A DNA stretch of 64,000 bases from a virus (lineage: Duplodnaviria > Heunggongvirae > Uroviricota > Caudoviricetes). This document shows, in pieces, positions 3,430 to 64,000 of this stretch; the stretch's first letter is position 1, and each line of letters opens with the position of its first letter. The translations under genes and the position numbers were made by a program. The stretch lies in IMG/VR virus record IMGVR_UViG_2851955134_000009; one strand, given 5' to 3'. Under the pieces are notes generated by a model. It was not told where the DNA came from. It saw nothing but the letters and a program-made list of their open reading frames with translations, and ran no database searches.

Positions 3430-3524
3430 ATCTCTTTTGCGATCCTAGTATCAGTTTTGTACCCAATTGGGTACTTGTCACGATTACTACAGGCTCACCA
3501 CAAGCCAATAGGAGATGTTGCATC

Positions 3525-3746
3525 ATGACCCCTAACATTTCAATAACTCTGAATACGCCACACGTCACAATCGAGCGTTATAGCGAACTTACTGGTCTTT
3601 CAATCGACACAATCAACGATATGTTGGCGGATGGTCGCATTCCTCGGCATCGTCTTCGTAAAGACAAGAAAAGAGAAAAGGTAATGATCAACCTTGCTGC
3701 TCTTACCGTTGATGCACTTACTGATTGCAATGTTGTATTCAACTAG
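3525..3746 (+). CDS. apl: Apl/Cox-like excisionase and transcriptional regulator
   Basis: 73-aa ORF from internal ATG ([14 protein letters not shown]...), first gene of the rightward lytic operon opposite cI. Confidence 0.6.
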
Positions 3747-11225: not shown

Positions 11226-11719
11226 TTTATCATCCAGCATATGATGCCTATCATTGTCTATTTAGAATGATGGCAATTATGGAAAATACAAATCGGCTTG
11301 AGATTGATAAGCTTAAAATATTGGATTTTTACATTTTATTTCCTGCGTTATTAAGTGAAGTGAAAATGCCGAGAGAATTTATTAAAATTAAAAAAACAGC
11401 AAAACTACATCATAATGAATATCATGATCCATTGAGTCCAAGGATTATTTTCAAGGAAATGCGTCAAATACAGGATGCAGCACTAAAATGTATGCTTGCG
11501 ACTGGTTATATTGATTCTGATGATTTCAGCAATGGTTTTGTCTCAAGAACAAATAAACAATTACCACTGAACCTAGCCTTAGAAATGGGCGTTTTTTTAG
11601 AGCGCAAAGAACCGTTTTCATCTTTCATTACACAAAAGATGGCTAAATTTGATCTGACTGGACCTGATGGATTGAAGGCTAGAACTAAACTTATGGAGTA
11701 TAGATATGACACTTATTAA
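11219..11719 (+). CDS. Hypothetical protein, candidate cassette component
   Basis: 166 aa; ATG with AAGGTGGG RBS; 7-nt overlap with upstream gene and 14-nt overlap with the ATPase gene. Confidence 0.6.
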   Translation: MLVYHPAYDAYHCLFRMMAIMENTNRLEIDKLKILDFYILFPALLSEVKMPREFIKIKKTAKLHHNEYHDPLSPRIIFKEMRQIQDAALKCMLATGYIDSDDFSNGFVSRTNKQLPLNLALEMGVFLERKEPFSSFITQKMAKFDLTGPDGLKARTKLMEYRYDTY

Positions 11720-21075: not shown

Positions 21076-21154
21076 CGGTGATCTGAATGCGTTGCTGGAT
21101 GAAACGGAGGCCGCCTGGGCGGTCTGTGCAGACAAAGTGGACATGATTATTTGA
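20918..21154 (+). CDS. lysC: o-spanin lipoprotein (Rz1-like, LysC), 3' end replaced by Mu-like insertion
   Basis: Lipobox LTLSGC; 78 aa; stop codon TGA is the first 3 nt of the inserted element; reconstructed empty site gives a 96-codon ORF. Confidence 0.7.
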   Translation: MRTRIYATGLILLCLLTLSGCGNVRHSPEVQLTVSGCPRVTPCRLEQAAPRTNGDLNALLDETEAAWAVCADKVDMII

Positions 21155-21200
21155 TGCGCCGCGCGATAAATGCGCTCTATCTTGTGCGATAAATGGCATC
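21152..21200. repeat. Right-end terminal repeat region (transposase binding sites)
   Basis: TGATGCGCCGCGCGATAAATGCG...GTGCGATAAATGG, two GATAAAT motifs 22 bp apart; resembles the Mu R-end as recalled. Confidence 0.7.
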
Positions 21201-21229: not shown

Positions 21230-21802
21230 TTACATTTCAGGTTCCGTTATGACAGTCCCAACAGGGTGATAGCGGTAGATCGTTGACAGTCCAATATCAT
21301 AGATAATTGCCAGCCGCTTTCTGTCATACCCTTTCTGGAGCAATCTTGCGATCTGCTCATGCTGCTCCTTCGTCAGTTTCGGGCGACGTCCTCCAACTCT
21401 CCCTTGTGCTCGCGCAGCAGCCAGTCCTGCCAGCGTGCGCTCAACTATCAGTTCACGCTCCATTTCTGCCAGTGCACCCATCATATGAAAAAAGAACCTT
21501 CCCATCGGAGTGCTGGTATCGATTGAATCCGTCAGACTGCGAAAATTGACACCTTTTGCGCGTAGCTCTTCTGTGAGAGCAATGAGGTGTTTCATTCTTC
21601 TACCCAACCGATCCAGCTTCCAGACCACCAATGTATCCCCTCTTTTAAGGCACTTTAAAGCGCGTTTCAGGCCTGGTCGTTCCGACTTGGTTCCGCTCAT
21701 TTTGTCCTCAAAAATCTGTTCACATCCTGCGCACATTAATGCATTGCGTTGCAAATCTGTGTTTTGGTCATTTGTTGACACACGTATGTAGCCAATCAGC
21801 AT
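21230..21802 (-). CDS. gin: Serine DNA invertase (Gin/Hin/Cin family)
   Basis: 190 aa from ATG at 21802 (MLIGYIRVSTNDQ...); resolvase catalytic N-terminus and C-terminal HTH; adjacent to invertible tail-fibre segment. Confidence 0.9.
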   Translation of the reverse strand: MLIGYIRVSTNDQNTDLQRNALMCAGCEQIFEDKMSGTKSERPGLKRALKCLKRGDTLVVWKLDRLGRRMKHLIALTEELRAKGVNFRSLTDSIDTSTPMGRFFFHMMGALAEMERELIVERTLAGLAAARAQGRVGGRRPKLTKEQHEQIARLLQKGYDRKRLAIIYDIGLSTIYRYHPVGTVITEPEM

Positions 21803-21915
21803 TAAAAATACTCCCTTTTGAGTGGTTAAAGTACTGAGATAATGTGAGGAGGATTTGAGAGATAAACGTTGGTTTGGGGGAAGGCTCTGCATTGCCTGTT
21901 GGTGTACCGGTTCCA

Positions 21916-21948
21916 TGGCCCACCGCCACACCGCCAGCAGGCTGGTTA
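21916..21948. repeat. Inverted repeat, left crossover site of invertible segment
   Basis: 33-bp TGGCCCACCGCCACACCGCCAGCAGGCTGGTTA, perfect inverted copy at 23394..23426. Confidence 0.8.
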
Positions 21949-22335
21949 CAGTGCAACGGAGCTACGTTCACCAAAGAACAATATCCTGTTCTGGCCAGAG
22001 TCTACCCGACCCTCCGTCTTCCCGATTTGCGCGGTGAGTTTATCCGTGGATGGGACGGTGGTCGCAAGGTTGATACCGGGCGTGCGCTACTTTCATTTCA
22101 GGAAGGGACTATCGTATCCGGTTTTGATGATAATGATACCGGAGATATCAGTTCGCTCGGCTCTACACAATACGGATTTGGTGACGCTTTAACCTCTAAT
22201 CAACTGGGGGTCATAAATGGCAAAAAGTGGATATTTGATGCATCCTCTAAAGGTGCACAAAGATATGACTGGTGGGCTTATGTATCAGCTCGCCCCCGCA
22301 ATATCGCATTTAACTATATCGTGAGGGCGGCGTGA
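21949..22335 (+). other. Silent alternative tail-fibre C-terminal cassette (Sv'-like)
   Basis: Shares the GEGSALPVGVPVPWPTATPPAGWL junction and the C-terminal NYIVRA with the expressed fibre; no own ATG (track start is TTG inside the repeat). Confidence 0.7.
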
Positions 22336-22341
22336 TACCGT

Positions 22342-22956
22342 TCAGCCGGCAAGCGCCAGTGGCGCTTCCGGCCAGCTGATTTCAGGTGCCTTGCTGATAT
22401 CCAGTGCGTTCAGCTCGTCGATATAATCCAGCACGGCGTTCAGTTTTGCCGTTTCTTCTGGTTTCAGACTGCGACCTGCCCGCAGTTTGAGGTTGATGAG
22501 GTCGATGGACTTCATCGCCTGATCCACCCGTTCCTGGCGTTGCAGTCTGGCAACCTCCAGCTCTGCGGCTCGCTGCCGTTCAGTATCGGTTACCCACGCC
22601 TCACCGTTCCAGGTATCCCATGGCGTGGCCGGCTGTTTTGTGGTGGTGTCCGCCGGGTAATCACCCGGCTGGGTAATCTGAACGGGAGTACCGTTCTCCG
22701 TGCTGTATACCGTCTCGCCGCGGTGATCAGGCACATGTTCCCACCCGTTCAGCGTGGCAGTCCGGCAAACCACGTAACCCGAAATTGCCTCCGGCGGTGC
22801 ATCGGCGCACGAATGTGCCGGAGTACCCACCCCAAGGGCGAGATACTCCACAGAGGATGAGGTGTATTCCCGGGTTTCCTCGTCATAGTGATATACAGTG
22901 ATATCGCCCGCTACAGTGGCGATACCGTTTTCATCCAGAACTGCAGTGTTACTCAT
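22342..22956 (-). CDS. Tail fibre assembly protein (Mu U-like chaperone)
   Basis: 204 aa, immediately downstream of the fibre gene, inside the invertible segment. Confidence 0.8.
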   Translation of the reverse strand: MSNTAVLDENGIATVAGDITVYHYDEETREYTSSSVEYLALGVGTPAHSCADAPPEAISGYVVCRTATLNGWEHVPDHRGETVYSTENGTPVQITQPGDYPADTTTKQPATPWDTWNGEAWVTDTERQRAAELEVARLQRQERVDQAMKSIDLINLKLRAGRSLKPEETAKLNAVLDYIDELNALDISKAPEISWPEAPLALAG

Positions 22957-24725
22957 TAAACTGCCCTCACAATGTAATTAAGTGCAATGCTACGGGGTCT
23001 GACAGTGATACCCTTCGCATACCCGCTTCTGATAGAGGTCAGAATAGTAGCCTGCATACCATTGTCTGACATTGCCACGACAGGATCGCTGAATGTTGTC
23101 CCGTCCGGCATTTTAAAGCTGCCCTCACGAAGGTCTGTAATGGAATCTTCATTGTTGAATCCCATGCCGACTATCCCCGAGGTTCCCGTAGTGTCCTGGT
23201 TATAATAATCCAGCATTGCTGTTCTTAACAGCGTTGCCCCTTGTGCGGACAGCAACTTACGTCCTGTATCAACTTTGCGCCCGTCGTCCCATCCACGGAT
23301 AAACTCACCGCGCAAATCGGGAAGACGGAGGGTCGGGTAGGCTCTGGCCAGAACAGGATATTGTTCTTTTGTAAAGGCGCGCCCGTCGCACTTTAACCAG
23401 CCTGCTGGCGGTGTGGCGGTGGGCCACGGAACAGGCACACCAACGGGTAGCGCCGAGCCTTCTCCTAAACCAAGGTAATTGAGGACATCTTTTATACTGC
23501 CCTTAGCGATAATAGCGCGACCAATAGCTGTAAGGGTTGCCAGCGCTGCGCGGTCTGCTCCGGTAAAATAAGGCAACCGATCTGCTGCAGTGGCAAGTCC
23601 TGCCAGAGCAGTGAGCGTGGCATCTGCCGGTTGTTTTCCGTTTGCCAGATCGTATGCAGCCTTGACCGCTTTCGGTGTGGCGGCCAGTATTTCAGACGTG
23701 CTGTTGATGGCACTGCTCAGTTGTACGGTGCCTTTTGCCGTCAGCGAGGCCGCAGGCACTCCCGTTATCTGACTCCACGGGTGAGTGTGGCTGGCAGGCG
23801 CCTTGCCGGCTGCCAGGTCGTATGCAGCCTTGACCGCTTTCGGTGTGGCGGCCAGCGTTTCAGACGTGCTGTTGATGGCACTGCTCAGTTGTACGATCCC
23901 TTTACGGGTCGTTGTTGCATCCTGGGCTGTGTATTTTCCCCGGGCCAGATCATACGCGATTTTCACAGCCTTCGGCGTGGCAGCCTCAGTTTCTGATTGA
24001 CTGTCCGTGGCGCTGCTCAGTTGTACGGTGCCTTTTGCCGTCAGTGAAGCCGCAGGCACTCCCGTTATCTGACTCCACGGGTGAGTGTGGCTGGCAGGCG
24101 CCTTGCCGGCTGCCAGGTCGTATGCAGCCTTGACCGCTTTCGGTGTGGCGGCCAGCGTTTCAGACGTGCTGTTGATGGCACTGCTCAGTTGTACGATCCC
24201 TTTACGGGTCGTTGTTGCATCCTGGGCTGTGTATTTTCCCCGGGCCAGATCATACGCGATTTTCACAGCCTTCGGCGTGGCAGCCTCAGTTTCTGATTGA
24301 CTGTCCGTGGCGCTGCTCAGTTGTACGGTGCCTTTTGCCGTCAGTGAAGCCGCAGGCACTCCCGTTATCTGACTCCACGGGTGAGTGTGGCTGGCAGGCG
24401 CCTTGCCGGCTGCCAGGTCGTATGCAGCCTTGACCGCTTTTGGTGTGGCGGCCAGCGTTTCAGAGGTGCTGTTGGTGGCACTGCTCAGTTGGGTGAACCC
24501 CTTAGCTGTCAGTGTCGCGTCCGGGTGGTTACGGGAACGTACGTGTTCAGCCAGTGACTGTGCGGCTTCCTCCGTTTTCTTCTTCAGCCATTTCGTCCTG
24601 TTTGCCAGTTGCCGGGGGGCTCGATTTGATATCCCGTCTGCACCACCCAGAACCGGATCTGATGTCTCCAGTTGATAGATATTTTCTTCCCACTTTTCTG
24701 TTTCATTCAGGTTTCCCATAATCAA
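22956..24725 (-). CDS. Tail fibre protein (Mu S-like) with repetitive shaft
   Basis: 589 aa; about 100-aa repeats (GTVQLSSA..S.SET.AATPKAVK.AYDLA); C-terminal 145 aa lies inside the invertible segment. Confidence 0.85.
   Translation of the reverse strand: MIMGNLNETEKWEENIYQLETSDPVLGGADGISNRAPRQLANRTKWLKKKTEEAAQSLAEHVRSRNHPDATLTAKGFTQLSSATNSTSETLAATPKAVKAAYDLAAGKAPASHTHPWSQITGVPAASLTAKGTVQLSSATDSQSETEAATPKAVKIAYDLARGKYTAQDATTTRKGIVQLSSAINSTSETLAATPKAVKAAYDLAAGKAPASHTHPWSQITGVPAASLTAKGTVQLSSATDSQSETEAATPKAVKIAYDLARGKYTAQDATTTRKGIVQLSSAINSTSETLAATPKAVKAAYDLAAGKAPASHTHPWSQITGVPAASLTAKGTVQLSSAINSTSEILAATPKAVKAAYDLANGKQPADATLTALAGLATAADRLPYFTGADRAALATLTAIGRAIIAKGSIKDVLNYLGLGEGSALPVGVPVPWPTATPPAGWLKCDGRAFTKEQYPVLARAYPTLRLPDLRGEFIRGWDDGRKVDTGRKLLSAQGATLLRTAMLDYYNQDTTGTSGIVGMGFNNEDSITDLREGSFKMPDGTTFSDPVVAMSDNGMQATILTSIRSGYAKGITVRPRSIALNYIVRAV
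23394..23426. repeat. Inverted repeat, right crossover site of invertible segment
   Basis: Reverse complement of 21916..21948, located inside the fibre gene at the constant/variable junction. Confidence 0.8.
23640..24480. repeat. 300-bp tandem repeats within the tail-fibre gene
   Basis: 23761..24060 and 24061..24360 are identical, with diverged partial copies on both sides. Confidence 0.85.
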
Positions 24726-58689: not shown

Positions 58690-58746
58690 CACTCCAATTC
58701 GTTATTTATCTCACGGATCCCCCTTCATTTATCTCATGTCTGATCA
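58690..58746. repeat. Left-end terminal repeat region (transposase binding sites)
   Basis: Reverse complement reads TGATCAGACATGAGATAAATGA...GTGAGATAAATAA, same motif spacing as the right end. Confidence 0.7.
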
Positions 58747-58771
58747 ATTATTGCGTGTCAGGAGCGAAACA

Positions 58772-59203
58772 GTGAACAAACCACAATCCCTGCGCCACGC
58801 CCTCAATAAAGCGGTGCCTTATGTCCGCAATAACCCGGACAAACTGCATCTGTTTGTGGATAACGGTTCGCTGGTTGCCACGGGGGCCAGCTCCATGTCA
58901 TGGGAGTACCGCTACACCCTGAACGTGGTGATTGAGGATTTCAGCGGCGACCAGAATCTGCTGATGGCCCCGGTTTTGCTGTGGCTGCGTGATAACCAGC
59001 CCGATGCCATCAATAACCCGGCGTTACGGGAAAAGCTATTCACCTTTGAGGTGGATATTCTGCGCAACGATGTCTGTGATATCAGCCTCAACCTGCAACT
59101 GACGGAGCGTGTGCTGGTCAGCACTGACGGCAGTGTGTCGAGCGTTGAAGCTATAGCGGAACCTGATGAACCTGAAGAAATGTGGACGGTGAAACGTGGC
59201 TGA
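58772..59203 (+). CDS. R: Tail completion protein (P2 gpR-like)
   Basis: GTG at 58772 with AGGAG RBS; the track start at 58736 lies inside the Mu-like end and is probably not native. Confidence 0.75.
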   Translation: MNKPQSLRHALNKAVPYVRNNPDKLHLFVDNGSLVATGASSMSWEYRYTLNVVIEDFSGDQNLLMAPVLLWLRDNQPDAINNPALREKLFTFEVDILRNDVCDISLNLQLTERVLVSTDGSVSSVEAIAEPDEPEEMWTVKRG

Positions 59204-59642
59204 ACTGCAGAAAGTGGACGACTGGCTGAGTGCCTTGCTGGCGAATCTGGAGCCAGCCGCAAGAAGCCGCATGATGCGCCAGCTGGCGCAGGAACTACGC
59301 CGGACACAGCAGCAAAATATCAGAATGCAGCGCAATCCAGATGGCAGCAGTTATGAACCGCGACGGGTAACAGCACGCAGTAAAAAAGGCCGTATCAAAC
59401 GTCAGATGTTTGCAAAGCTGCGCACCACAAAATACCTGAAAACTTCCGCCAGCGCCGACTCTGCCAGCGTGCAGTTTGAAGGCAAGGTGCAGCGCATTGC
59501 CCGCGTTCACCATTACGGCCTGCGAGATCGCGTCAGTCGTAAGGGACCGGAGGTGCGTTACGCAGAGCGTCGCCTTCTGGGTGTAAATGATGATGTTGAG
59601 GCAATGACCCGCGACATGATTCTGCAATGGCTGGCGGGGTGA
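59196..59642 (+). CDS. S: Tail completion protein (P2 gpS-like)
   Basis: 148 aa, overlapping R stop. Confidence 0.75.
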   Translation: MAELQKVDDWLSALLANLEPAARSRMMRQLAQELRRTQQQNIRMQRNPDGSSYEPRRVTARSKKGRIKRQMFAKLRTTKYLKTSASADSASVQFEGKVQRIARVHHYGLRDRVSRKGPEVRYAERRLLGVNDDVEAMTRDMILQWLAG

Positions 59643-59710
59643 TCTTTGTATCAGCACTGATACAAGTTGCAGCACTGCCGCCTTTCTTCCCCTGATGGCA
59701 ACCTTTCCCT

Positions 59711-60289
59711 ATGAACGCACAATTAACCGAAATCATGCGCCTTATCACCAACCTGATCCGCACAGGGGTAGTCACCGAAGTGGACAGGGAAAACTGGCTT
59801 TGCCGGGTGAAAACGGGCGAGCTTGAAACCAACTGGATCAGCTGGCTGACGCTGCGTGCCGGGAATGCCCGTACATGGTGGCGACCATCGGAAGGTGAGC
59901 AGGTGGTGCTGCTGAGTCTGGGCGGCAATCTGGAAACCGCCTTTGCGCTGCCCGCTGTCTATTCGAATCAGTTCGCACCACCGTCGACGTCGGCGGACGC
60001 CTGCGTGACAGAACATCCTGACGGTGGCTGGTTTGAATACGAACCCGCCACCGGGCGCTGGTATGTCAGGGGCATCAAATCAATGGTCATTGAGGCTGCT
60101 GACAACATCACCATGAAAACCAGTGAGTTTGTACTGGAGGCTGACCGCACGCGCATTAACAGCGAAGTGGTGATCAATGGTGGCGTTACCCAGGGCGGCG
60201 GAGCGATGAGTTCTAACGGGATCGTGGTTGATGCGCATCAGCATACTGGCGTCCTGAAAGGCGGCGATACAACCGGAGGCCCGGTATGA
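59711..60289 (+). CDS. V: Baseplate spike protein (P2 gpV-like)
   Basis: 192 aa, V-W-J-I order. Confidence 0.8.
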   Translation: MNAQLTEIMRLITNLIRTGVVTEVDRENWLCRVKTGELETNWISWLTLRAGNARTWWRPSEGEQVVLLSLGGNLETAFALPAVYSNQFAPPSTSADACVTEHPDGGWFEYEPATGRWYVRGIKSMVIEAADNITMKTSEFVLEADRTRINSEVVINGGVTQGGGAMSSNGIVVDAHQHTGVLKGGDTTGGPV

Positions 60290-60645
60290 CGCTTTATAGC
60301 GGGATGAACAATACCAGCGGCAAAGTCATTACTGATATTGATCATCTGCGCCAGTCGGTGCGGGACATTCTGCTGACACCGCAGGGTAGCCGTATTGCCC
60401 GCCGGGAATATGGTTCCCTGCTGTCGGCACTGATAGATCAGCCACAAAATCCGGCATTACGCCTGCAGGTCATGTCGGCAGTGTATGTGGCGCTGAGTCG
60501 CTGGGAGCCACGGTTGACGCTGGATTCCATCACCATCAACAGCAATTTTGACGGTTCAATGGTGGTGGAGCTGACCGGGCGGCGGAATAACGGTGTGCCT
60601 GTGTCCCTTTCCGTATCAACAGGAGCAGAGAATGGCAGTGATTGA
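60286..60645 (+). CDS. W: Baseplate wedge protein (P2 gpW-like)
   Basis: 119 aa, ATGA overlap with V. Confidence 0.8.
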   Translation: MTLYSGMNNTSGKVITDIDHLRQSVRDILLTPQGSRIARREYGSLLSALIDQPQNPALRLQVMSAVYVALSRWEPRLTLDSITINSNFDGSMVVELTGRRNNGVPVSLSVSTGAENGSD

Positions 60646-61540
60646 CCTTTCGCAGTTGCCTGCACCGCAGATTGTGGATGTGCCGGACTTTGAGACGCTG
60701 CTTGCCGAACGCAAGGCAGAATTTGTGGCGCTTCATCCGAAAGATGAGCAGGAAGCAGTGATCCGCACGCTGGAACTGGAATCTGAACCCGCCACTAAAT
60801 TGTTGCAGGAGAACGCTTACCGTGAGTTGCTTCTGCGCCAGCGCATTAACGAAGCCGCGCAGGCGGTGATGGTGGCTTACGCGATGGGCGGCGATCTTGA
60901 CCAGCTCGCTGCCAACTACAACGTGACACGCCTGACGGTGACGCCTGCTGATAATGATGCTGTGCCGCCCGTTGCAGCTGTGATGGAAAGCGATGAAGCG
61001 TTGCGCCTGCGTGTGCCTGCAGCCTTTGAAGGGCTTTCTGTTGCGGGGCCAACTGCAGCTTATGAATTTCATGCCCGAAGCGCCGACGGTCGGGTGGCGG
61101 ATGCCAGTGCAACCAGCCCGGCACCTGCAGAGGTGGTGCTGACTGTCCTTAGCCGCGAAGGCGATGGAACTGCAGAAAAAGACCTGCTGGACGTGGTGGA
61201 AAAAGCTCTGAACAGTGAGAACGTCCGCCCGGTGGCTGACCGTCTTACGGTTCGCAGCGCAGAAATCATCCCGTATCGCGTGGAAGCCACCATTTTTCTC
61301 TATCCTGGACCGGAAGCAGAGCCGGTAATGGCAGCGGCAAAAGCCAGCCTGCAGAAGTACATCGCCAGTCAGACGCGTCTTGGTCGGGATATTCGCCGTA
61401 GCGCCATCTTTGCCGCCCTGCATGTTGAGGGGGTGCAGCGTGTGGAGCTGGCTTCTCCTCTGGCGGATGTGGTCCTGAACAAAACACAGGCGGCATCATG
61501 TACGCAGTGGAGCGTAACCAACGGAGGAACGGATGAATAG
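60632..61540 (+). CDS. J: Baseplate protein (P2 gpJ-like)
   Basis: ATG at 60632 with AGGAG RBS (MAVIDLSQLPAPQ...); 302 aa. Confidence 0.8.
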   Translation: MAVIDLSQLPAPQIVDVPDFETLLAERKAEFVALHPKDEQEAVIRTLELESEPATKLLQENAYRELLLRQRINEAAQAVMVAYAMGGDLDQLAANYNVTRLTVTPADNDAVPPVAAVMESDEALRLRVPAAFEGLSVAGPTAAYEFHARSADGRVADASATSPAPAEVVLTVLSREGDGTAEKDLLDVVEKALNSENVRPVADRLTVRSAEIIPYRVEATIFLYPGPEAEPVMAAAKASLQKYIASQTRLGRDIRRSAIFAALHVEGVQRVELASPLADVVLNKTQAASCTQWSVTNGGTDE

Positions 61541-62138
61541 TCTGCTGCCACCGGGTTCAACACCACTGGAGCGCCGACTGGCGCAAACCTGCAGCGGGAT
61601 TTCTGATCTGCAGGTGCCGCTTCGTGATTTGTGGAATCCGGCAACCTGTCCGGTCAGTTTCCTGCCTTATCTCGCCTGGGCGTTCTCTGTGGATCGCTGG
61701 GACGAGGGCTGGACAGAAAGCGTCAAGCGCCAGGTGGTGAAGGATGCTTTTTATATTCATCAGCATAAAGGGACCACCAGTGCCGTGCGGCGGGTGGTGG
61801 AGCCGTTCGGATTCCTGATCCGCATTATTGAGTGGTGGCAGACCGGAGAAACACCGGGCACGTTTCGCCTGGATATCGGCGTGCAGGACCAGGGCATCAC
61901 TGAAGATACCTATCTGGAACTTGAGCGACTGATAAGCGATGCCAAACCATGTAGCCGCCACATGATCGGCATGTCCATCAATCTGCAGACCAGCGGCCCG
62001 CATTGGGTGGGAGCCGCCAGCTATCTTGGCGAAGAAATCACGATCTATCCGTATATCAACGAAACGATTATTTCCGGTGGCACCGCGCATGAAGGCGGGG
62101 CGGTCCATGTTATTGACACAATGAGAGTGAATCCATGA
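61533..62138 (+). CDS. I: Baseplate protein (P2 gpI-like)
   Basis: 201 aa, GGAGG RBS. Confidence 0.8.
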   Translation: MNSLLPPGSTPLERRLAQTCSGISDLQVPLRDLWNPATCPVSFLPYLAWAFSVDRWDEGWTESVKRQVVKDAFYIHQHKGTTSAVRRVVEPFGFLIRIIEWWQTGETPGTFRLDIGVQDQGITEDTYLELERLISDAKPCSRHMIGMSINLQTSGPHWVGAASYLGEEITIYPYINETIISGGTAHEGGAVHVIDTMRVNP

Positions 62139-63493
62139 GCACAAAATTTTATACCCTGCTGACGGATATTGGCGCGGCGAAACTTGCCAGCGCCGCCGCG
62201 CTCGGTGTGCCGCTAAAAATTACCCATATGGCGGTGGGCGATGGCGGTGGAGTATTGCCAACGCCGGACGCAAAGCAGACGGCACTGGTAAATGAGAAAC
62301 GCCGGGCTGCGCTGAATATGCTTTATATCGACCCGCAGAACAGCAGCCAGATTATTGCCGAACAGGTGATCCCTGAAAACGAGGGCGGTTGGTGGATACG
62401 TGAAGTGGGCCTGTTTGATGAGTCAGGGGCATTGATTGCCGTGGGCAACTGCCCGGAAAGCTATAAGCCGCAACTGGCTGAAGGTAGCGGGCGCACTCAG
62501 ACCGTGCGCATGGTGCTGATTACCAGCAGCACGGACAATATCACCCTGAAAATCGACCCTGCTGTAGTGCTGGCAACCCGCAAGTATGTGGATGACAAGG
62601 CACTGGAGCTGAAGGTGTACGCGGATGATCAGATGGCAAAACATCTTGCCGCACCGGACCCGCATTCACAGTACGCGCCAAAAGCCAGCCCGACATTTAC
62701 CGGAACCCCCAAAGCGCCAACGCCAGCGGCGGGGAATAATACCACGCAGGTTGCGACCACTGCGTTTGTACAGGCGGCACTGACGGCCCTTATTAATGGT
62801 GCGCCAGCCACGCTGGACACGCTGAAAGAAATAGCCGCAGCCATTAACAATGATCCGAATTTCAGTACCACCATTAACAATGCGCTGGCACTAAAAGCAC
62901 CGTTGTCGAGTCCGGCACTCACCGGAACGCCAACAGCCCCCACGGCGGCGCAGTCGGTCAACAATACACAGATTGCCACTACGGCTTTTGTGAAATCGGC
63001 GATTGCAGGAATGGTGGGTTCTGCACCTGCTGCACTGGATACACTGAACGAACTGGCGGCGGCACTGGGGAATGATCCGAACTTTGCCACGACAATGCTT
63101 AATGCGCTGGCAGGTAAACAACCGCTGGACAATACGCTTACCAATTTGAGTGGAAAGGATGTAGCTGGTCTTCTCACATACCTTGGTTTAAGAGCAAGCG
63201 GGCAGTACACCGATAATTTGTTATTTACAGGTCCTGATGGTCTTAAGATTCAGGTGTTTCGCCGGACGCTCGCAAATTTGACTACTGTCGGTGTAGTAAA
63301 TTCTGTGCCAGTGACTTTCCCTGTCCCGTTCCCTGTTAATTGCTGGGGCGTTTTTTCTACCAAATTAACATGGGTTCAGATAACTAACTCATGCGAGTGG
63401 GTAAGCAATACAGGATTTACCGCTCAGGTCATGATGAATATTGCTGTAAATACAAACACCTCAGACGCTATGTTTTTAGCTATAGGATATTAA
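62135..63493 (+). CDS. H: Tail fibre protein (P2 gpH-like)
   Basis: 452 aa; conserved N-terminus, repeated TTAFV/NDPNF shaft motifs, low-GC C-terminal domain. Confidence 0.8.
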   Translation: MSTKFYTLLTDIGAAKLASAAALGVPLKITHMAVGDGGGVLPTPDAKQTALVNEKRRAALNMLYIDPQNSSQIIAEQVIPENEGGWWIREVGLFDESGALIAVGNCPESYKPQLAEGSGRTQTVRMVLITSSTDNITLKIDPAVVLATRKYVDDKALELKVYADDQMAKHLAAPDPHSQYAPKASPTFTGTPKAPTPAAGNNTTQVATTAFVQAALTALINGAPATLDTLKEIAAAINNDPNFSTTINNALALKAPLSSPALTGTPTAPTAAQSVNNTQIATTAFVKSAIAGMVGSAPAALDTLNELAAALGNDPNFATTMLNALAGKQPLDNTLTNLSGKDVAGLLTYLGLRASGQYTDNLLFTGPDGLKIQVFRRTLANLTTVGVVNSVPVTFPVPFPVNCWGVFSTKLTWVQITNSCEWVSNTGFTAQVMMNIAVNTNTSDAMFLAIGY

Positions 63494-63494
63494 T

Positions 63495-63935
63495 ATGAAT
63501 CGTTTTGTGTTCAGTCCATCTGAGTCCCGTTTTTATGCCATCGAGTGGCAGGCTGATTATGTTGATAATAATTGTTGGCCACATGATGCCATTAACGTTA
63601 GTGACAGCATTTATTATGAGTTTTCCGGCACTCCCCCTACAGGTAAGCAACTTATAACTTTAAATAACATGCCAGCATGGGGTGATATTCCTCCACCTAC
63701 ACGAGAAGAATTAATTGTCGCTGCTGATGTGGAGAAGCAAAAAAGAATAGATTTAGCCAATGATTACATGAACGGTAAGCAATGGCCTGGTAAAGCAGCT
63801 ATTGGTCGTCTGAAAGGTGAGGAACTGGCACAATATAATTTGTGGCTGGATTATCTGGACGCACTGGAGCTGGTCGATACCGCCAGTGCGCCAGATATTG
63901 AATGGCCTACGCCTCCGGCAGTTCAGGCCAGATGA
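63495..63935 (+). CDS. G: Tail fibre assembly protein (P2 gpG-like)
   Basis: 146 aa; C-terminal ...WLDYLDALELVDTASAPDIEWP typical of fibre assembly chaperones. Confidence 0.75.
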   Translation: MNRFVFSPSESRFYAIEWQADYVDNNCWPHDAINVSDSIYYEFSGTPPTGKQLITLNNMPAWGDIPPPTREELIVAADVEKQKRIDLANDYMNGKQWPGKAAIGRLKGEELAQYNLWLDYLDALELVDTASAPDIEWPTPPAVQAR

Positions 63936-64000
63936 CATCTGGCGCGGTGCTGGTATCAGTTGCCGTCACCGCGTCAATGTAATCCAGTACAGCGTTAAGG
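63907..64000 (-). CDS. Partial convergent tail fibre assembly gene (3' end only, rest outside window)
   Basis: Minus-strand frame encodes ...LNAVLDYIDAVTATDTSTAPDVIWPELPEA-stop, a fibre-assembly-chaperone C-terminus overlapping the end of G. Confidence 0.5.
   Translation of the reverse strand, partial: LNAVLDYIDAVTATDTSTAPDVIWPELPEA

Follow-up and report, generated by a model that had tools for sequence, protein, structure and literature searches.

The window analysed here, a 64,000-bp stretch of IMG/VR record IMGVR_UViG_2851955134_000009 from a virus of the Caudoviricetes, ends within a minus-strand reading frame that faces the tail fibre genes of a P2-like phage, which raises the question of what this truncated frame is the end of and what lies beyond the edge. 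An earlier note on this DNA took the last 94 bp of the minus strand to encode the C terminus of a fibre-assembly chaperone, a reading that proves right in both content and coordinates. The minus strand translates from 63999..63910 as LNAVLDYIDAVTATDTSTAPDVIWPELPEA, 30 sense codons followed by TAG at 63909..63907. The codon before these reaches into the window with its third base, 64000, and the frame is open to the window edge; translation of both remaining minus-strand frames gives stops at the window end. By itself, the 30-residue fragment matches the Pfam family Caudo_TAP (PF02413) with an E value of 7.2e-8 and a score of 33.1 bits (cut-off 22.1), aligning to profile positions 103-131 of 131, that is, to the C-terminal end of the domain. 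It is also identical, at 30 of 30 residues, to the C terminus of TfaE from the cryptic prophage e14 of E. coli K-12. We list 63907..64000 (minus strand) as the convergent 3' end of a tail fibre assembly gene of the tfaE type.

In length, thirty open codons carry no significance of their own, and what precedes them lies past the window edge; this would suit a chance antisense frame 3' of gene G or a frame from an unrelated neighbouring element, with no alternative cassette behind it. The final 600 bp of the window, the 94-bp fragment included, are nonetheless those of E. coli ACN001 base for base, and there the frame, which the earlier note had considered might be closed a few codons upstream, runs on into a 200-aa gene named tfaE in RefSeq; in several genomes, identical DNA enters this annotated 200-codon gene. 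The match to Caudo_TAP and TfaE, taken together with this continuation, is far beyond chance. The overlap of the fragment's 3' end with the end of G, also described in the earlier note, amounts to 29 bp (63907..63935) shared by the two convergent tfa genes, and the same 29-bp overlap is found between tfaP and tfaE of K-12 e14 (3518-3546 of locus L026) and between the convergent tfa genes of phage 500465-1 (7718-7746 of locus L003). A frame open by chance is thereby effectively refuted, and we leave it almost no probability. Our preferred reading, held with high confidence, is that the fragment is the 3' end of a tfaE-type chaperone gene lying in the silent half of a Pin/Gin-type (Din-family) invertible segment of a P2-like prophage.

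The genes that the fragment faces are organized as expected for the expressed half of such a segment. The H-like tail fibre gene (62135..63493, plus strand), identified from its ORF, translation and Pfam matches, encodes 452 aa, with a Phage_tail_fib domain at its N terminus (residues 1-150, E 4.6e-65) and a Gp53-like_C domain at its C terminus (residues 387-452, E 2.7e-6). Residues 1-350, encoded up to 63184, form the constant part, and residues 351-452 the currently expressed variable tip; the homology of the fibre region to phage 500465-1 and to Klebsiella P2-like phages ends at ~63190. The G-like/TfaP-like chaperone gene paired with this tip opens one base after the fibre gene (63495..63935, plus strand), and its 146-aa product is a Caudo_TAP protein (E 1.3e-26) with a C terminus resembling that of K-12 TfaP. 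The fibre tip (63185-63493) and this tfa gene (63495-63935) together constitute one of two cassettes.

The second cassette is found in close relatives. Window positions 61500-64000 align over their full length to several complete E. coli genomes at 99.2-99.8% identity. In two of the relatives, ACN001 and APEC E19025, the plus-strand tfa gene is followed on its 3' side by a convergent 603-bp tfa gene (200 aa, RefSeq tfaE), the product of which contains Caudo_TAP_N and Caudo_TAP domains (full-length Caudo_TAP E 7.2e-33). Next comes a convergent 543-bp ORF annotated as "tail fiber protein", which is a promoter-less fibre C terminus with a Collar domain (E 6.5e-16), and after it a plus-strand 567-bp gene annotated as "recombinase family protein". 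In E. coli prophages that share the window's final 600 bp without a difference, the cassette and invertase occupy the next 2.2 kb, and beyond the invertase the relatives resume with the P2 genes for tail sheath, tube, E/E', tape measure, U and D. When the 452-aa fibre protein was looked up by exact sequence, the same picture emerged: all ten contigs shown carry the 146-aa tfa gene facing a 200-aa tfa gene and a Collar fragment (179-180 aa), and in these ten as in ACN001 and APEC E19025 the 200-aa tfa gene lies directly 3' of the Collar fragment on the same strand. A full-length 188-aa Resolvase+HTH_7 invertase followed by the sheath gene is present in nine of the ten. Two of the features that the earlier note had suggested seeking downstream are thus found in relatives, namely an alternative fibre C terminus (the Collar fragment, in genomes identical or 99.2-100% identical) and an invertase between the fibre fragment and the sheath gene.

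The invertase of the relatives belongs to the Din family. Its 188 residues match Resolvase (E 2.4e-53) and HTH_7 (E 1.9e-15), carry the N-terminal motif YVRVSTNDQ and are 86% identical to PinE; among structures, Gin is matched with an E value of 7.7e-93 for 3UJ3 (about 1e-92 for 3UJ3/4M6F). By homology to Gin and PinE, Ser10 is the probable catalytic serine. Near the 5' end of the invertase gene, two 15-mers fit the degenerate Fis consensus, which is a weak one, with centres 48 bp apart (+30/+78). In Hin and Gin systems a recombinational enhancer is expected at such a Fis position, in the 5' part of the invertase gene. The Fis-like pair is kept in P2-like, e14 and Mu-like invertase genes, at positions that are coding, so that its conservation is not independent evidence. 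The pair would fit such an enhancer, with a consensus too loose for proof.

The third feature, a pair of inverted repeats, was recognized by reading the silent fibre fragment, which contains the motif ttcttaaacgTTggtttgggagaa; a consensus scan then returned one pair of sites per locus. The left site, TTCTCACATACC TT GGTTTAAGAGCA, is a 26-bp crossover site of 12-2-12 layout at 63171-63196 (plus strand) within the fibre gene of the window. Its left half is fixed and its right half lies inside the invertible segment. The right, invertase-side site, TTTTCTTAAACG TT GGTTTGGGAGAA, is found in the relatives, at 11499-11524 (minus strand) of the ACN001 locus (L002) and at the same coordinates in locus L001; in the continuation of the window it would be expected to read TTCTCCCAAACC AA CGTTTA(A/T)GAAAA. 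Both sites have the layout of Hin, Gin, Cin and Pin sites, lie in inverted orientation and share an identical central TT, making a 26-bp Din-type pair with one member in the window. Generic inverted-repeat detection missed them, as only about 14 of the 26 positions are shared, and the fibre-side half-site TTCTCACATACC deviates from the consensus AAACC core. The core pattern WACSTTGGTTTRRGRG nevertheless has three matches in the window against none expected (none in 100 shuffles), one of them the P2-like fibre site and the other two in a Mu-like element. Only two sites are present in each of the loci L001-L004, and a shufflon-like arrangement of multiple sites, such as one of the EPEC P2-like prophages has, was therefore rejected.

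The position of the central dinucleotide explains how exchange can leave the reading frame intact. In the window, TT falls at 63183-63184, codon positions 2-3 of Leu350, and in both fibre genes it occupies codon positions 2-3 immediately before Gly-Leu (..TYL|GL.. and ..LNV|GL..). Because the codon phase is equal in the two genes, exchange at the centre keeps the frame, and flipping the fibre gene in silico yields an open 516-aa fusion with a collar-type tip at its end. From the offset to the ACN001 locus (window position = L002 position + 53499) and the limits of the in-silico flip, we assign the last 816 bp of the window (63185..64000) to an invertible segment of ~1825 bp. By the same projection, the segment would end at ~65009, the right site would lie at ~64998-65023 and the invertase gene at ~65079-65645, all outside the window. 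There the collar-type fibre fragment would be expected to end in ...NIAFNYIVRAA and the 188-aa invertase to start with MLIGYVRVSTNDQ. The genome of the window presumably continues as in its relatives, with an invertase that is probably active there.

If the segment is invertible, both orientations should be found among closely related genomes, and this is what we observe. We searched 5,426 complete E. coli genomes with a 2425-bp query spanning the segment in native and flipped form. The native orientation is present at full length in six genomes, among them ZH48, and the flipped query matches at full length and 99.2% identity in ZH49, a sister of ZH48, at the corresponding place in the chromosome (coordinate offset of ~400 bp). 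When the ZH48 locus is flipped over the 1825 bp between the central dinucleotides, it aligns to that of ZH49 with 0 mismatches in 5425 bp, compared with 1323 when left unflipped, and the breakpoint coincides with the crossover site to the base. Opposite orientations at identical coordinates, in a pinE context, are also seen between two further sister strains, Z1323PEC0011 and Z1323PEC0013. Phage 500465-1 and ACN001 are likewise collinear up to the crossover site (99.8%), inverted in the interior and collinear again from the invertase-side site, and the recombinant combination of half-sites, TTCTCACATACC TT GGTTTGGGAGAA, is present in 500465-1 (L003), in locus L004 and in ZH49. The segment has thus undergone natural, clean inversion at these sites in relatives.

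These observations bear out the suggestion of the earlier note that convergent chaperone genes point to an invertible alternative fibre cassette, the parts and both orientations of which are found in relatives. Its placement of an alternative fibre locus just outside the window needs qualification: the second cassette does lie there in relatives, but it forms, together with the cassette in the window, one switch of 1.8 kb rather than a locus of its own, and the segment already starts inside the window, at 63183/63185. We also observe a short leader ORF (MMPVSCYLCIFLNV...) that starts outside the segment beside the invertase gene and reads into the silent tip (11499-11552 of L002, minus strand; 3317-3664 of L027). 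Its product is of the collar type (180 aa) in one orientation and gp53-like (115 aa) in the other, as in ZH49, and by position it corresponds to e14 stfE/StfE2. The chimeric StfE2 protein has been reported to block adsorption of phage T2 (PMC12529663).

We propose the following model for the locus. The segment would be an insertion in a P2-like prophage, with H/G on one side and FI on the other, and the serine invertase would be encoded just past it. The invertase would synapse the inverted pair of 26-bp sites, of which the fibre gene contains one (63171-63196) and the other adjoins the invertase gene itself; cutting at the central TT, rotation of the strands by 180 degrees and religation would then flip ~1.8 kb and fuse the constant shaft (residues 1-350) in frame to either of two tips. 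In the orientation of the window, the gp53-like tip (102 aa) would be co-transcribed with the 146-aa Tfa, and in the other orientation the collar-domain tip (166 aa) with the 200-aa TfaE-like chaperone. Virions of two receptor specificities are predicted to make up the resulting population, and the two tips probably differ in host range. For annotation, the gene at 62135-63493 would then be one version of a fibre gene that has two, and what determines the host range of the prophage would be bistable.

A variant of this reading accepts the tfaE fragment as real and supposes that the invertase or the second site has been deleted or mutated, leaving the fibre locked with its gp53-like tip. Such decay does occur: in one genome with an identical fibre protein (GCA_002243905.1; locus L008, 12945-13503), only 70 aa of the invertase Resolvase domain are left, fused to a C-terminal remnant of the sheath, and L008 is an example of a decayed, locked switch. 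This P2-like prophage is heavily deleted, with further deletions in the head, lysis and tape-measure regions. In the window itself, a Mu-like insertion already disrupts the host prophage, which suggests relaxed selection. Against this, both sites and the intact 188-aa invertase are retained in nine of the ten contigs shown with an identical fibre, and the last 600 bp of the window are those of ACN001. Moreover, the Mu-like invertase in the window, which is 77% identical, or other Pin proteins could act in trans, as PinQ and PinR do on e14 (PMC12529663). We consider a locked fossil very unlikely and retain the reading of a Din-type segment that is probably still active.

The system is a textbook Din-family fibre switch, in which the mechanism of the e14 P segment and the Mu G segment operates within a P2-like tail operon. 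The closest described relative is the P segment of K-12 e14, which has TTGGTTTGGGAGAAGG repeats at its flanks and which PinE, PinQ and PinR can invert (PMC12529663). The architecture, stfP-tfaP / tfaE-stfE'-pinE, is the same, the repeat core TTGGTTTGGGAGAAGG matches the published one (PMC12529663), TfaE and the 200-aa ACN001 protein are identical at 182 of 200 positions, the K-12 pinE-side site, TTTTCATAAACG TT GGTTTGGGAGAA, is identical to that of APEC E19025, and the segments compare in size at 1825 bp here and 1797 bp in e14. The two differ in the fixed half-site on the fibre side (TTCTCACATACC here, CTCTCGAAAACC in e14) and in backbone, e14 being a lambdoid remnant whereas the present segment lies in a P2-like myovirus tail operon, between G and FI. 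The window tip and the N-terminal two thirds of its tfa gene have no DNA similarity to K-12 stfP/tfaP, only 63830-63999 aligning. In other E. coli, e14-type elements linked to pinE and stfP are 97.5-97.9% identical to the segment plus invertase (L002 9686-12146), and this homology sets in at query position 296, that of the crossover site. A start of homology exactly at that point indicates that the switch moves as a module between unrelated prophage backbones, so that Din crossover sites are mosaic boundaries and the cassette pair with its invertase is common to e14-type and P2-like elements.

Among P2-like phages, 500465-1 (Peduoviridae, Wadgaonvirus) is 100% identical to window positions 61500-63190, which cover the baseplate genes and the constant part of the fibre. 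It shares the gene order H-tfa / tfa'-H' fragment - invertase - sheath and has an annotated DNA invertase. Its collar+TfaE cassette is related (91-93% identical) but stands in the expressed orientation, and its second cassette differs, with no match to 63190-63756 of the window. The Mu G segment with Gin (likewise the P1 C segment with Cin, and Salmonella Hin) shares the mechanism: a Din-family serine invertase acts on 26-bp sites, and a constant fibre N terminus is combined with alternative C termini, behind each of which lies a chaperone of its own. In phage backbone and in fibre sequence it differs from what is described here. To our knowledge, canonical P2 has no such switch, although many P2-like (Peduoviridae) prophages carry one. 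Inversions inside two P2-like prophages of EPEC E2348/69 have been confirmed experimentally (PMC4272514), and one EPEC version has three repeats and four states, against the two sites seen here. Salmonella Fels-2 is another P2-like prophage with a DNA invertase, Fin, which is cited as acting in trans (PMC12529663). Mechanism, gene family and exact sequence alike are already described or annotated in public genomes (RefSeq), and nothing about the switch is unexpected.

The prophage that carries the switch is itself interrupted. Annotation and Pfam matches in near-identical loci give the P2 gene order and families O N M L X holin-lysozyme-LysA/B/C R S V W J I H G ... FI FII E T U D ogr, and in the window this order is split between 1-21151 (integrase region to lysC) and 58747-64000 (R S V W J I H G), both of which match near-identical P2-like prophages. 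The intervening 37.6 kb (21152-58746) are a Mu-like transposable prophage with TG...CA ends and a flanking duplication of ATTAT(T). Its junctions lie at 21140-21160 and 58740-58760, and its genes include those for an rve transposase, an AAA ATPase, Gam, Mor and a DUF935 portal. Because of the insertion, the P2-like lysC lacks its last 18 codons and no longer adjoins R. With the P2-like prophage split in this way, the switch may no longer serve a viable phage.

This nested arrangement of a Mu-like element in a P2-like prophage was seen in none of the complete E. coli genomes in our collection, none of which covers at least 80% of window positions 39001-64000. An exact 45-nt pattern across the Mu-like/P2-like junction had 0 matches in genome contigs and 0 in metagenome contigs, and the truncated LysC' protein is not on record. 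The terminal 210-aa protein of the Mu-like element occurs in 10,838 blocks, the ten places shown being ten unrelated insertion sites, and seven P2-like proteins of the window are all very common, each being found in 486 to 1000 or more contigs.

The Mu-like element has a Din-type segment of its own within 21233-24725. It comprises an invertase gene (21233-21802, minus strand), the product of which is 77% identical to the P2-like invertase, a tfa gene (22342..22956, minus strand), a fibre gene of 589 aa (22956..24725, minus strand) and an alternative collar-type tip fragment (21874..22335, plus strand), and the consensus scan places its crossover sites at ~21857-21882 and 23460-23485 (minus strand). 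There is a single tfa gene in this segment, and the alternative collar tip abuts its 3' end with a 6-bp gap, an arrangement in which the tip, once inverted, would be without a co-oriented chaperone.

The presence of two Din systems in one stretch of DNA might allow for interaction between them. The P2-like and Mu-like invertases might act on each other's sites, or the P2-like fibre site (63171-63196, plus strand) might recombine with the Mu-like fibre site (23460-23485, minus strand), although we regard either event as unlikely. If it did occur, such inter-prophage recombination would exchange receptor-binding tips between two phage types that are not related to each other, through an inversion of about 39.7 kb. 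The three Din cores in the window (21865-21880, 23462-23477 and 63179-63194) share the central TT, followed by GGTTTRRGRG, and have nearly the same right halves. The Mu-like fibre also contains near-perfect tandem repeats of ~77 residues (TAKGTVQLSSATDSQSETEAATPKAVKIAYDLARGKYTAQDATTTRKGIVQLSSAINSTSETLAATPKAVKAAYDLAAGKAPASHTHPWSQITGVPAASL), in more than two copies, which suggests variation in shaft length.
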